Of a stretch of 45,976 bases of DNA, positions 8,078-45,976 are shown one piece after another. The position numbers and the translations under genes are program-made. Each line of letters starts with the position of its first letter. Position 1 is the stretch's first letter. The notes under the pieces are model-generated. The model saw only the letters and a program-made list of their open reading frames with translations. It was not told the origin of the DNA and ran no database searches. Source of the stretch: Candidatus Hodarchaeota archaeon (GTDB taxonomy: Archaea > Asgardarchaeota > Heimdallarchaeia > Hodarchaeales > Hodarchaeaceae); assembly GCA_029856365.1 (NCBI GenBank), contig JAHQWW010000022.1:1-45976 (forward strand), in the 5' to 3' direction.

Positions 8078-8725
8078 TTAACTTTCAATCGAGGAACTTG
8101 TGGGTTGTTGTAATGTATTCTTGATGTCGTCCCAGCTTAACTTTTGTTGTAAAAAATCACTAATTTCACGACTGTAAAGACGTTCAGCCTCAAACTGCTT
8201 TTTGAAGTCTAAACAGGCATTTTCAGTAAATTCTGAACATTCCTTGCACAGCTTTATTTTCCTTTTACTTGTTTGTAAACGCTTCATTCTTTGAAAAACC
8301 GCCAAAAACATAATTATAAATAGAAATATTATAATTTTATCAATCCATAAAGGTTGTAACCAAAGTTCTGCTAATGCCATTCCCCAGCCAGCACCCAGAG
8401 AGATTCTAATAACGTCTTTGATTCTTCGATTATGAAAGGAATGGAGTAAACCAATCCATGCGGGGCTAATAACTCCGAGAACAATCATGAAGACTTCAAA
8501 TGGCGAAAAATTACTAAATGGATTTAACAATAAGGTTACTAATAGCGTTATCAACGCTGAACTATATGTCCATGCGCATCCTCGACAGATAAACCAACTA
8601 CCTACATGAAAAACTTCTTGTTGGTAGTCAGAGCATAATGGATGATGAGCAAAATGAAAAGGGAGTAAAATCTGAAGGTAACGTTTTAAAAAAAATAACC
8701 GGTGATTCCTTGGTAATATCTTCAC
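8078..8725 (-). CDS. Membrane protein with His/Cys motifs (DUF2085-like)
   Basis: AHHPLC...ICRGC before about 4 TM helices, and C-terminal CKEC...C. Confidence 0.6.
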   Translation of the reverse strand: MKILPRNHRLFFLKRYLQILLPFHFAHHPLCSDYQQEVFHVGSWFICRGCAWTYSSALITLLVTLLLNPFSNFSPFEVFMIVLGVISPAWIGLLHSFHNRRIKDVIRISLGAGWGMALAELWLQPLWIDKIIIFLFIIMFLAVFQRMKRLQTSKRKIKLCKECSEFTENACLDFKKQFEAERLYSREISDFLQQKLSWDDIKNTLQQPTSSSIES

Positions 8726-16667: not shown

Positions 16668-18131
16668 ATGTCTCTTAATCTAGAACCTTTTTTCAATCCA
16701 AGAGCAGTTGCTTTGGTTGGTGCAAGTGACAAGCTCTCAAGTTGGGGATTCATTGTTGCTCATAATATTGTGCAAAATAGTTATACGGGGGAATTTTTTC
16801 CTGTTCATCCCAATAAAAAGGAAATTTTAGGATACAAAGCCTATCCTTCTATTCTTGAAATCCCGAAAGATATACACCTTGATCTAGTGATTATCATCAT
16901 TCCTGCAAGATTTGTCTTATCTATCCTTGAACAGGCAAAACAGAGAGATGTTCATCATGTTGTTATTATCACAGCTGGTTTTAAGGAATCTGGAGAGGAA
17001 GGACGAAAATTGGAGGAGAAAATTACAACTTATGCTCAACAAAATGGTATCCGATTAATTGGACCGAATGGGATGGGTATTGTAAGCACACGGGTAAATT
17101 TAACTGCAGTAATGTGGCCTGTAGCTGGATTAAGACAAGGAGACATGGCTTTTATCTCTCAGTCAGGAAATATTGGCACGATTGGTCTCACTGTTGCTTC
17201 GAGACGAGGGATAGGTCTTAATGTATATGTTTCGGCTGGTAACATGGCAGATTTGGTAATGGCAGATTATTTAGAATTCTTTGGTAAGCATGATACCAGA
17301 ACCAAAGTTATTGGCCTTTATGTAGAAGGGATTCAAGATTCCCGGCGTTTTGTAAATTTAGTGAAAGAGATATCTAAAAGCAAACCAGTTATCATATTAA
17401 AAGCTGGAGGCACAGTTTCAGGTCGTCAGGCTGCTCTTTCTCACACAGGAGCTATAACTGGTGATGACCGAGTCTTTCGTAATATTCTAGAGAATGCAGG
17501 AGCAATAATTGTAGATTCTCTTGATGAAATGTTTGACCTTGTTCTTGTTTTCTCTCGATGGGCTGAAATGAGGTTTCCTAGAGGAAGAGTTGTTATTTTA
17601 ACAAGAGGTGGTGGTTGGGGGGTAATGGCAGCTGATGCATGCTCTAGACAAGGAATAAATTTAGAGCCATTAACCAAAAATGCGTATGAACGTATTGATG
17701 AAATTCTCCCGCCCTACTGGTCGAAAGGAAACCCGATTGATACAGTTGCTTCACTAAATTTGAACGACGTCAAAGAAATTATTAAAATTATCTTTGATGA
17801 GATGCCCTCAGTCGAAGCTATATTTCTCTTAGGAGTTGGAGGGATAGCTTATCTAGCAAATCTGGCAAAACAATCCCCTTTCATTCTTGATGAGCACAAA
17901 GATCAACTTAATTTTATTTCTGATCTAGAAGTAAATCTGTTTAAAGAAGTCATCAAGCTCTCTCGAAGTTACAACAAGCCTATTTTGATAACAACCTTAT
18001 TAACTGCTCACAATTCGCCATCAATACAATTTCTTGAGTCTCAAGATTATCCAATCTTCCCTAGTCCTACTAGAATGGTTCAAACTTTTCGTTATATGGT
18101 TGATTATTACCGTTGGCGACAAAGAATATAA
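16668..18131 (+). CDS. ADP-forming acyl-CoA (acetate-CoA) ligase alpha subunit
   Basis: FFNPRAVALVGAS, GPNGMG, SQSGN, SHTGAITG (phospho-His) and NPID. No ATP-grasp beta subunit in the window. Confidence 0.9.
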   Translation: MSLNLEPFFNPRAVALVGASDKLSSWGFIVAHNIVQNSYTGEFFPVHPNKKEILGYKAYPSILEIPKDIHLDLVIIIIPARFVLSILEQAKQRDVHHVVIITAGFKESGEEGRKLEEKITTYAQQNGIRLIGPNGMGIVSTRVNLTAVMWPVAGLRQGDMAFISQSGNIGTIGLTVASRRGIGLNVYVSAGNMADLVMADYLEFFGKHDTRTKVIGLYVEGIQDSRRFVNLVKEISKSKPVIILKAGGTVSGRQAALSHTGAITGDDRVFRNILENAGAIIVDSLDEMFDLVLVFSRWAEMRFPRGRVVILTRGGGWGVMAADACSRQGINLEPLTKNAYERIDEILPPYWSKGNPIDTVASLNLNDVKEIIKIIFDEMPSVEAIFLLGVGGIAYLANLAKQSPFILDEHKDQLNFISDLEVNLFKEVIKLSRSYNKPILITTLLTAHNSPSIQFLESQDYPIFPSPTRMVQTFRYMVDYYRWRQRI

Positions 18132-44268: not shown

Positions 44269-45018
44269 ATGTATAAGATCGTCCTTCTTCGCCATGGTGA
44301 GTCTATTTGGAATAAAACTGGTCTTTTCTCTGGCTGGACTGACGTAGATTTATCAAATAAGGGAATTGATGAAGCTAAACAAGCTGGTCAAGTACTTAAA
44401 GATGGAAATTATGTTTTTGACATAGCATATACATCAGTTCTCAAAAGAGCCATCCGAACCTTGTGGATTGTCTTGGATGAAATGAACTTAATGTGGATCC
44501 CAGTTCATCGCTCGTGGAGATTAAATGAAAGGCATTATGGAGCTCTTCAAGGACTTAGTAAAGCTGATACTGTTACAAAACATGGTGAGAAACAAGTTTT
44601 AATTTGGAGAAGGAGTTATGATACCCCTCCTCCCTCTTTAAAGAAGAATGATGAACGCTATCCTGGTAACGACCCAAAATATCATAGCTTAGATGATCAT
44701 GAGATTCCATTAACAGAATGTCTAAAAGATACTGTTGCTAGAGTTCTTCCTTATTGGTACGAAGTTATACTCCCTACTATTAAATCTGGTAAAAGAATTT
44801 TGATTTCTGCTCATGGAAACAGTCTTCGTGCTTTAATAAAATACTTAGAGGATTTATCAAATGACGAAATCTTGAGACTCAATATACCAACGGGAATACC
44901 ACTTGTTTACGAGCTTAATGAGCGTATTCAGCCAATTAAACATTACTATCTCGGGGATCCAGAAGAAGTCAGAAAAGCGATTAAAAAAGTAACAAACCAA
45001 GGAAAAGCTAAGAAATAG
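44269..45018 (+). CDS. gpmA: 2,3-bisphosphoglycerate-dependent phosphoglycerate mutase
   Basis: [42 protein letters not shown] and IPTGIP. Confidence 0.97.
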
Positions 45019-45216
45019 GCCTTGGTTGGATTCTAAAAAATTTTTCTCTGACTTTTGTTCAAAAATAAGGAAACTCATACCTGACTAGGACAAAATAACT
45101 TCATTGGGGAAGAATTGAATCTTCTCCTCTTATCCCGTATCTGTCTTAATTTTCATTATTTATTCGCGCTACCAAGAGGCCTATCATGATGTGCCCCACC
45201 ATACTAGATTTAAAGT

Positions 45217-45342
45217 GAGGAGTACGAGGAAAAAACGACCGTGGTATGGTAAGATTTATAAAGGAGAGAAAATTTTGCTTACATATGTGAGTTGCAATAC
45301 AAACTCACGACCATTATCTCACGAGAAAAGGTGAAATTAAAA
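45217..45342 (+). promoter_or_regulatory. Histone promoter and 5'UTR cassette, copy 1
   Basis: GAGGAGTACGAGGAA (45217-45231), TATA box TTTATAAA (45255-45262), GTGAG-N12-CTCAC (45287-45308), and SD AGGTG 9 nt before ATG 45343. Confidence 0.75.
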
Positions 45343-45546
45343 ATGGCTGGTTTTGCAAGAGCAAGAATTGAAAAACTTATTAGAACTGCTGGTGCACATA
45401 GAGTGTCAGCTGGGGCAATTGAACGCCTGAATGAAATATTAACTGATTATGGCACCACTGTTGCTAAATATGCTGTTGAGATTGCTCAACACTCTGGCCG
45501 TAAGACTGTAAAAGAATCCGACAATAAACTCGCAGCAACAAAATAA
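45343..45546 (+). CDS. Archaeal histone (HMf-type, 67 aa)
   Basis: RIEKLIRTAGAHRVS...AVEIAQHSGRKTVKESD.KLA histone-fold signature. SD spacing supports ATG 45343. Confidence 0.95.
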   Translation: MAGFARARIEKLIRTAGAHRVSAGAIERLNEILTDYGTTVAKYAVEIAQHSGRKTVKESDNKLAATK

Positions 45547-45572
45547 GGAATCTAGTAGTCTAGCGGCAATTT

Positions 45573-45603
45573 GAGGATGATTTCCTCTTTTTCCCCCTTT
45601 TTT
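45573..45603 (+). terminator. Probable histone terminator (short hairpin plus oligo-T tracts)
   Basis: GAGGA-TGATT-TCCTC followed by TTTTT CCCCC TTTTTT, 26 nt after the stop. Confidence 0.55.
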
Positions 45604-45851
45604 ATATCGTTATACTCCCTGTTCTATGGAGATATGTGTACGTTCCGTTCTTTAAACATTCATAAGGTTATGGAACAATTTCTTCCGTAGATTTAACTAT
45701 TTCTTTAAGATATATCCGTTTTATCCGCAATAAACCGAACAAATGAGGTTTTACTAGGCTTAAAATGAACAATATGAGTGTTGATTAAAACATTAAACTG
45801 CCCTCTTTTTTTCATCAACCTTAATATGACTTATTTACTTAGCATTATCAC

Positions 45852-45976
45852 GAGGAGTACAAGGAATTAGATGGCAAAAGTAGAGTAAGATTTATAAACT
45901 AGGTGATTTTCTTAAATTGCAGTGAGCTCAAACAAGAACTCACAACTGTTATCTAGGAGAAAAGGTGTATAAAAAA
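45852..45976 (+). promoter_or_regulatory. Promoter and 5'UTR cassette, copy 2 (for a gene starting just beyond the window)
   Basis: GAGGAGTACAAGGAA (45852-45866), GTAAGATTTATAAA (45885-45898), GTGAG-N12-CTCAC (45922-45943), TTATCT, and GAGAAAAGGTG (45957-45967) followed by 9 nt to the window end. Confidence 0.75.

Follow-up and report, generated by a model that had tools for sequence, protein, structure and literature searches.

The DNA analysed here, hereafter the window, is an entire contig of 45,976 nt (G000:C170) from a Candidatus Hodarchaeota archaeon (Hodarchaeales, Heimdallarchaeia; Asgard archaea), whose genome of 4.24 Mb has 35% G+C and is 83.6% complete. At the end of the contig lie a short histone gene, histone 1, and the leader of a second one, histone 2, and each of the two start codons is preceded by a copy of the same promoter and leader cassette. 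Both copies run in the same order through a purine-rich box, a transcription factor B recognition element (BRE) with a TATA box, the inverted repeat GTGAG-N12-CTCAC, the hexamer TTATCT and the element GAGAAAAGGTG. This cassette, its recurrence at other histone genes and a candidate small RNA (sRNA) gene complementary to part of it are the subject of the present work. The preliminary description of the window had placed the copies at 45217-45342 and 45852-45976, and both are indeed found there, aligned in register, with the blocks conserved and the spacers diverged. Where genomes have to be told apart, G000 is the genome of the window, G003, G007, G009-G012, G014 and G017 are congeners, G019 belongs to a sister family and G046 to another family of the class. 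The features of the two copies are as follows.

45217..45231, + strand: purine-rich box GAGGAGTAC(G/A)AGGAA of copy 1
45852..45866, + strand: purine-rich box of copy 2, 14 of 15 positions identical to copy 1
45249..45262, + strand: BRE-like GTAAGA and TATA box TTTATAAA of histone 1, within the 14-mer GTAAGATTTATAAA
45885..45898, + strand: the same 14-mer ahead of histone 2, an exact match between the copies
45286..45309, + strand: leader hairpin of histone 1, (U)GUGAGUU / AACUCAC(G) with an 8-nt loop (GTGAG-N12-CTCAC at 45287-45308), from folding and covariation
45922..45943, + strand: leader hairpin of histone 2, GUGAG-N12-CUCAC, beginning 24 nt past the TATA box, with arms invariant in four orthologues
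45314..45319, + strand: TTATCT of copy 1, a shared and dispensable remnant
45949..45954, + strand: TTATCT of copy 2, likewise
45323..45336, + strand: leader box GAGAAAAGGTGAAA of histone 1, a Shine-Dalgarno (SD) core AGGTGA with a 5' extension, from a logo of 46 leaders (GAGAAAAGGTG at 45323-45333)
45957..45967, + strand: leader box GGAGAAAAGGTG of histone 2, a match to GAGAAAAGGTG
45343..45546, + strand: histone 1, 67 aa, tail-less, HHoB-like (PF00808, E 8e-12)
45976..45976, + strand: probable A of the histone 2 ATG, since in a BLAST alignment the A of the G007 start codon, the last base aligned, falls on this position

Histone 1 scores 45.7 bits against PF00808, for which the curated cut-off is 21.4, and thus belongs to the archaeal histones of the HMf type; its closest solved structure is the Hodarchaeal histone HHoB (9QV5/9QV7, E 2e-26, residues 3-67 aligned). 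The coding sequence of histone 2 lies beyond the contig end and was read in congeners instead, with GpmA used as the anchor by which syntenic loci were found in 17 of them. A second histone gene had been predicted to begin at about 45977, and in G007, G011 and G012 the copy-2 leader does run into such a gene, its start corresponding to 45976/45977 of the window. The G007 leader matches copy 2 of the window nearly base for base and continues into an ATG and a 67-aa histone (PF00808, E 1e-14, 54.8 bits) that is 88% identical to histone 1; the orthologues in G011 and G012 likewise encode a 67-aa histone. In these three genomes gpmA is followed by histone 1 and then by histone 2, all on the one strand, and in G009 and G017 the histone pair is inverted. 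A gap of 9 nt had been given between the SD sequence and the ATG in copy 1 and between the SD sequence and the window end in copy 2. The former is correct; for copy 2 the alignment to the G007 orthologue, counted from GGTG to ATG, gives 8 nt.

In five species the orthologues of histone 1 and those of histone 2 fall into two sets, distinguished by six diagnostic residues, and the duplication therefore predates those species. Their coding sequences are 78% identical and share no exact run longer than 14 nt. Repeat collapse was considered as the cause of the contig break at the histone 2 start codon and rejected on account of these short runs; no other contig of the assembly matches the G007 sequence downstream of histone 2. 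The two genes had been described as separately promoted, which agrees with the presence of a near-consensus BRE/TATA promoter ahead of each and with an oligo-T tract that follows histone 1 and is invariant in 4/4 aligned species, while its flanks vary. This tract likely terminates histone 1 transcription, and its invariance fits separate transcription units for the pair.

45584..45603, + strand: oligo-T tract CCTCTTTTTCCCCCTTTTTT, 38 nt past the histone 1 stop, likely terminator of histone 1
44269..45018, + strand: gpmA-like histidine-phosphatase gene (PF00300, E 6e-34), the syntenic anchor upstream of the histone pair

The shared blocks had all been proposed to be selected cis-elements. This held for the TATA/BRE, the hairpin arms and the leader box, and was not borne out for TTATCT and the purine-rich box. 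In both copies an A/T-rich TATA box is directly preceded by a purine-rich BRE, as in archaeal promoters generally; the 14-mer GTAAGATTTATAAA occurs twice in the genome, both times in this locus, the TATA box of the pair is invariant in orthologues, and the layout (G)AGTAAR-TTTATAAA recurs at many paralogues. Of the six genomic sites of the pattern GTGAG-N10-14-CTCAC, three fall within histone leaders, and GAGAAAAGGTG occurs 10 times against about 1.7 expected from base composition, with 6 of the 10 directly ahead of histone starts. The purine-rich box, which in copy 1 reads GAGGAGTACGAGGAA and stands 38 nt ahead of the TATA box, also has its only two genome occurrences as a 15-mer in this locus. 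A role as an activator site, though conceivable, finds no support in its conservation: among orthologues it keeps 8-11 of 15 identities, no better than its flanks, and it is absent from other paralogues. TTATCT was discarded as a required element: the histone-1 leaders of G009, G014 and G017 lack the whole spacer that contains it, and in them the hairpin directly adjoins the box.

The inverted repeat of the leader folds as an RNA hairpin (-9.4 kcal/mol for a 40-nt window of histone 1) that begins 24-25 nt past the TATA box of this gene. The same spacing is seen widely: of 36 leaders that combine a clear TATA box with a hairpin, 29 have their first paired base 20-26 nt past the TATA box. In the start-site map of Thermococcus kodakarensis, archaeal transcription begins about 23 bp past the TATA box (PMC4247193), and from this rule and the observed distance the hairpin is predicted to stand at the very 5' end of the mRNA; that of histone 1 would begin at the predicted transcription start. 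The Hodarchaeal promoters resemble the canonical archaeal ones of that map in their purine-rich BRE-like hexamer before TTTATAAA and in a start distance of about 23 bp that fits the hairpin foot; they differ in that the starts of T. kodakarensis were mapped, whereas the Hodarchaeal starts are predicted from sequence.

The hairpin is conserved as pairing, not as sequence. Among paralogues the stems read GTGAGTT/AACTCAC, ATGAGTC/GACTCAT, CTGAGTC/GACTCAG, GTTCTG/CAGAAC, AAGTCT/AGACTT, TTTCTAC/GTAGAAA and GTCGA/TCGAC. Covariation was assessed on a sequence-only MAFFT alignment of 25 leaders with an 8-pair helix, in which 85.6% of cells are paired. Shuffled alignments give 72.6%, with 0 of 500 attaining the observed figure, and sliding the partner strand gives 28-46%. 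All eight pairs change on both sides, with 25 compensatory cells, as expected of a stem maintained by compensatory change. Across the nine histone promoters of G000, the start-proximal 40 nt fold with a mean of -7.7 kcal/mol, compared with -3.2 for 166 other TATA promoters (Mann-Whitney p 6e-6). Strong hairpins 20-25 nt past a TATA box also occur at a few non-histone genes of this genome (-12.2 and -9.6 kcal/mol), and stems at the transcript start may be a wider, uncommon device there. The following were found by folding.

G000:C98, TATA box ending at 8248, + strand: start hairpin of a non-histone gene
G000:C80, TATA box ending at 17513, + strand: start hairpin of a non-histone gene

The leader box lies where ribosomes would bind. 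A 16S search returned no 16S rRNA gene in the assembly of the window, and the 3' end was read in the congener G007, where it is standard (...GGATCACCTCCT / CACCUCCU / ...GGAUCACCUCCU). The 16S match of G007 (L076, G007:C9:1695-3919, - strand) extends over 2,225 nt for a model of 1,478 positions, and this gene probably contains one or more insertions or introns. The core AGGTGA, 5-9 nt before the start codon, matches UCACCU of this end and is a Shine-Dalgarno sequence; since the 16S 3' end is the standard ...GGAUCACCUCCU, only AGGUGA of the box can pair with it. Conservation extends further. In 46 distinct histone leaders, seven bases 5' and three bases 3' of GGTG are each identical in 37-46 of the 46, whereas in control leaders of gpmA orthologues from the same genomes just GGTG is kept. 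SD-like 4-mers stand ahead of about 37% of clear gene starts in G000, as opposed to 6% of control windows, and the other SD-led genes lack the extension of the box. Judged by this conservation, the histone leader box is more than a Shine-Dalgarno sequence.

The preliminary description had expected the motifs at further histone promoters, and a scan of the genome and its relatives finds them there, throughout the genus. The genome encodes about 11 histone-fold genes, including tailed forms and a doublet, in agreement with the ten histones reported for LC3 (bioRxiv 10.1101/2025.05.24.653377). The proposed histone cluster is real as an adjacent pair, and the other paralogues are scattered over other contigs. 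At 8-9 of the about 11 genes, and at their relatives in other genomes of the genus, the layout is shared: BRE/TATA, about 23 nt, a hairpin of 7-8 bp, a spacer of 0-45 nt, GAGAAAAGGTGAAA, 5-9 A-rich nt and ATG. A covariance model of hairpin and box (R1) gave 11 hits at E<0.01 in G000, comprising eight intact histone genes, one decayed histone remnant and others. In five congeners, 25 of its 31 hits lie directly upstream of histone genes, and the model matches 20 of the 21 other genomes of the genus. The cassette layout is therefore specific to histone genes and common to most histone paralogues of one genus. Outside the genus the picture is different: in other families of the class R1 gave weak hits, none adjoining histone genes and one standing before a gene for a protein that by eye reads as PCNA-like, the sole close histone of the sister family (G019) has another leader with just GGCAGGTG, and the same query found no close histone in four other class members.

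One explanation of the similarity between the two copies is that it is the leftover of a recent tandem duplication or gene conversion and contains no selected elements. The histone genes are indeed adjacent paralogues, and the purine-rich box and TTATCT behave as leftovers would. The age of the duplication, set by the separate orthologue sets in five species, and the divergence of the coding sequences speak against it, and so does the retention of TATA box, hairpin arms and leader box in scattered paralogues and in 20 other genomes; we consider it very improbable. The cassette was also considered as a generic signal of highly expressed genes and rejected, as the box is missing from other SD-led genes and the hairpin is rare at other TATA promoters.

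The decayed histone copy lies at G000:C18:111925-111990 (- strand) and consists of a GTGAGAC...CCTCAA hairpin and GGAGAAAAAATG, after which come MSGFVRAYDLS and then a stop codon. This copy appears to be the remnant of a pseudogene and is still detected by R1 (E 3e-7). At L194:1501-1567 of G046, a hairpin GTTGGA...TCCAAC with a GGAGAACAGGTGAAAT leader forms a cassette-like layout directly before a gene whose product, read by eye, we take to be PCNA-like.

Four of the non-histone hits of R1, together with one in G000, trace to one conserved locus, in which the box lies in antisense orientation.

G000:C9:80773-80850 (also L202:1501-1578), + strand: candidate sRNA gene of about 80-110 nt, with a TATA box, a 12-bp stem and an invariant tail

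Its TATA box (CTTATAAT and variants) stands 23-26 nt upstream of the stem in 19 of 19 loci examined, the stem of G000 beginning 24 nt past it. A 12-bp 5' stem (GAAAGAAAGGGC / GCCUUUUCUUUC) is followed by a tail, ACCUUUUCUCC, which is unpaired in the G000 fold, and then by T-runs. The 3' arm and tail together give UUUCACCUUUUCUCC, which is exactly complementary to GGAGAAAAGGUGAAA. In an alignment of 20 sequences, pairing in the stem amounts to 93.6%, a value that 0 of 500 shuffles reach, with five pairs changing on both sides; GU/UG pairs outnumber AC/CA combinations by 14 to 5, and the + strand of the locus is therefore favoured. In the same alignment, ACCTTTTCTC of the tail is invariant. The locus occupies a gap of about 900 nt between convergent genes with no same-strand gene downstream, and no conserved reading frame was found in it, so that it has the makings of a putative stand-alone non-coding gene with its own promoter. 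A model of the sRNA (R2) detects one copy in each of 20 of the 22 genomes of the genus and nothing convincing in 39 other genomes of the class, a distribution within the class that matches that of the cassette. A search of Rfam with the histone region and three sRNA loci returned no match at E<=1.

The predicted single-stranded tail is complementary to the ribosome-binding site of the histone mRNAs and is predicted to form a perfect duplex of 14-15 nt with it. Duplex energies range from -19.4 to -23.2 kcal/mol for seven histone leaders (-20.6 predicted for the box of histone 1 and -19.4 for that of histone 2) and reach -17.4 for the doublet. Against 1,633 other translation starts the tail gives a mean of -6.6 (sd 2.7) and a best of -20.2 kcal/mol (C47), and the histone leaders outrank all but at most two of these. 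Matches are weak for the tailed C142-type paralogue, C48b and C36, in which the box is degenerate. This complementarity between box and tail suggests RNA-level co-regulation of histone synthesis.

Taken together, we favour a reading in which the cassette combines a strong promoter, a hairpin that stabilises the message at its 5' end and an SD box under the masking control of a dedicated sRNA, with a probability of roughly 0.55. Transcription would start at the hairpin foot and yield histone mRNAs with a 5'-terminal stem-loop, which could protect them from decay that depends on the 5' end, and the SD core would drive efficient translation of the very abundant histones. The sRNA would pair with the box of all box-bearing histone mRNAs and mask the ribosome-binding site, thereby tuning the output of the histone paralogues together, while those with a degenerate box (the tailed C142 type, C48b and C36) would escape its control. 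Masking is proposed after an archaeal precedent, sRNA162 of Methanosarcina mazei, discussed below. We hypothesize further, and with some reserve, as this is possible but a little less than an even chance, that Hodarchaeales co-regulate their expanded histone family post-transcriptionally through the pyrimidine-rich tail of one sRNA pairing with an invariant purine-rich box a little way downstream of a stem-loop in almost all histone mRNAs, a counterpart in logic, and probably not in descent, of the eukaryotic stem-loop and U7 system.

Several points weigh against the reading we favour, the most general being that the transcription start, the existence of the sRNA and its effect on histone output are all inferred. 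With respect to the leader hairpin, two strand tests do not separate an RNA stem from a DNA palindrome: GU/UG and AC/CA combinations number 12 and 10, and folding favours the sense strand in 31 cases versus 19 for the antisense strand (p 0.11). Moreover, four paralogue families share the GTGAG/CTCAC arms at a constant distance of 12 nt, as would also be expected of a site for a dimeric DNA-binding protein. The inverted repeat may accordingly be a DNA operator, with a dimeric factor bound to GTGAG-N12-CTCAC over the start that represses or times histone transcription, and with the RNA hairpin incidental. In favour of this, arms and gap are the same in these four families and coincide exactly with the predicted start, the strand-asymmetry tests do not favour RNA, and binding over the start site or close to it is common among archaeal repressors (review PMC12993045). 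Against an operator, other histone paralogues have unrelated palindromes at the same position, which one factor could not read; there is covariation at inner pairs of the stem, one of which occurs as UA, CG, GC and UG, and loop length varies between 4 and 15 nt. A stem 24 nt past the TATA box also opens the candidate sRNA gene, although this gene has no protein product, pointing to a feature of the transcript end. On this balance we regard an operator as improbable.

The pairing of box and sRNA, the other half of the favoured reading, meets further counter-evidence. Box and tail are both invariant and show no covariation; in the lone variant pair (G010) each has a one-base insertion, at places that do not match, so that the changes are not compensatory. 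R2 finds no match in G003 and G017, which bear the box and are 89% and 93% complete. The matching distribution of sRNA and cassette is weak evidence, as related genomes are not independent. Finally, the full GAGAAAAGGTGAAA box also precedes the ATG of one non-histone gene of this genome, and of one only, at G000:C47:3129-3149 (+ strand); the product is a multi-pass membrane protein, the leader lacks a hairpin, and the gene would be the lone predicted target of the sRNA outside the histone family.

In a further explanation, the box is just a very strong ribosome-binding site or translational enhancer of highly expressed genes and the complementary locus is unrelated, either an unexpressed relic, such as an inverted histone 5' fragment, or an RNA that serves some other purpose. 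As an SD sequence AGGTGA is good, and it stands in a genome where such sequences are well above control levels, and the lack of covariation and of sRNA matches in the two box-bearing genomes would follow readily. By our own reading, the box strand of the sRNA locus moreover continues as GGCGGTTTGC, which loosely resembles histone codons 1-5. A ribosome-binding site alone does not account for the seven invariant bases 5' of the SD core, for which the 16S 3' end offers no pairing partner. Nor would a relic free of selection be expected to keep a single copy, its TATA distance, a compensated 12-bp stem and an invariant tail of 10-15 nt, and these features are kept across genomes whose GpmA proteins are just about 70% identical. 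We consider this explanation unlikely, while giving it more weight than an operator.

Taken singly, the parts of the cassette and its proposed partner belong to familiar types, namely archaeal promoters, SD sequences, 5' hairpins and sRNAs by which ribosome-binding sites are masked. The last have a trans-acting precedent in sRNA162 of M. mazei (PMC3510493). Both are independently transcribed structured sRNAs, on the Hodarchaeal side as predicted, in which a single-stranded stretch pairs with the ribosome-binding site of a trans-encoded mRNA and translational repression is the proposed outcome. They have no sequence relation, and the Hodarchaeal candidate would pair by its 3' tail, whereas sRNA162 pairs by an internal linker; the predicted Hodarchaeal regulon is a whole paralogous family with one invariant 14-nt target, in an Asgard host. 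For the hairpin, the nearest parallel is found in bacterial mRNAs that are stabilised by a stem-loop at the 5' end, as in the ompA leader of E. coli. Here too the hairpin would lie at the 5' end or within a few nt of it, an unstructured SD region follows and the message is very abundant; the domain of life and the decay machinery differ, and the Hodarchaeal 5' end is predicted from the TATA distance alone.

In metazoan replication-dependent histone mRNAs, the 3' end carries an SLBP-bound stem-loop and a purine-rich downstream element that pairs with the U7 small nuclear RNA. The Hodarchaeal arrangement is similar in that a stem-loop and a short spacer are followed by a purine-rich box complementary to the pyrimidine-rich single-stranded end of a dedicated, here putative, small RNA. 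It is located in the 5' leader, whereas the metazoan element comes after the stop codon; its stem has 7-8 bp and a loop of about 8 nt (4-15) in varying sequence, as opposed to 6 bp and 4 nt in a fixed sequence; and it would act on translation or stability, where the metazoan element serves 3' cleavage. With location and geometry of the stem-loop so different, the likeness to the SLBP/U7 system is, as we see it, one of analogy and not of membership. A search for the SLBP domain (PF15247) gave no hit in the 83.6% complete genome, and the control panel was equally silent.

In the literature searched on Asgard and Hodarchaeales histone promoters, untranslated regions (UTRs), hairpins and sRNAs, no description of the cassette or of the sRNA was found, nor of their combination as a histone-dedicated regulon. 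Term searches of two recent Asgard histone studies returned neither 'promoter' nor 'UTR' and, in the one where these terms were looked for as well, neither 'hairpin' nor 'stem-loop'. The work on HHoB (PDB 9QV5, 9QV6, 9QV7; bioRxiv 10.1101/2025.05.24.653377) concerns protein-DNA structure, and a term search of it returned neither promoter nor UTR.

Hodarchaeales are among the closest known archaeal relatives of eukaryotes and have about ten histone paralogues, some of them tailed; in a cultured strain, histones reach 21.2% of total protein (bioRxiv 10.64898/2026.07.02.735847). The cassette bears on how these paralogues are expressed and balanced, and it provides several handles: a histone-specific promoter and leader, a predicted 5'-end structure, a shared 14-nt box and a candidate sRNA with predicted escapees. 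If the favoured reading is true, the sRNA would be, as far as we have found, the first regulatory one with a defined regulon in an Asgard archaeon, and histone genes would be co-regulated at the RNA level outside eukaryotes. The cassette also offers strong expression elements for future Asgard genetics.

Two further observations concern the region between gpmA and histone 1. The 150 nt preceding the histone-1 TATA box are unusually conserved across four species and include AAAAAACGACNGTGG at 45231-45245, which has no counterpart in copy 2. About 90 nt past the gpmA stop, at 45106-45127, lies a conserved stem-loop of 8 bp (GGGGAAGA-ATTGAA-TCTTCTCC, with one G-U pair), which shows compensatory changes in G007.

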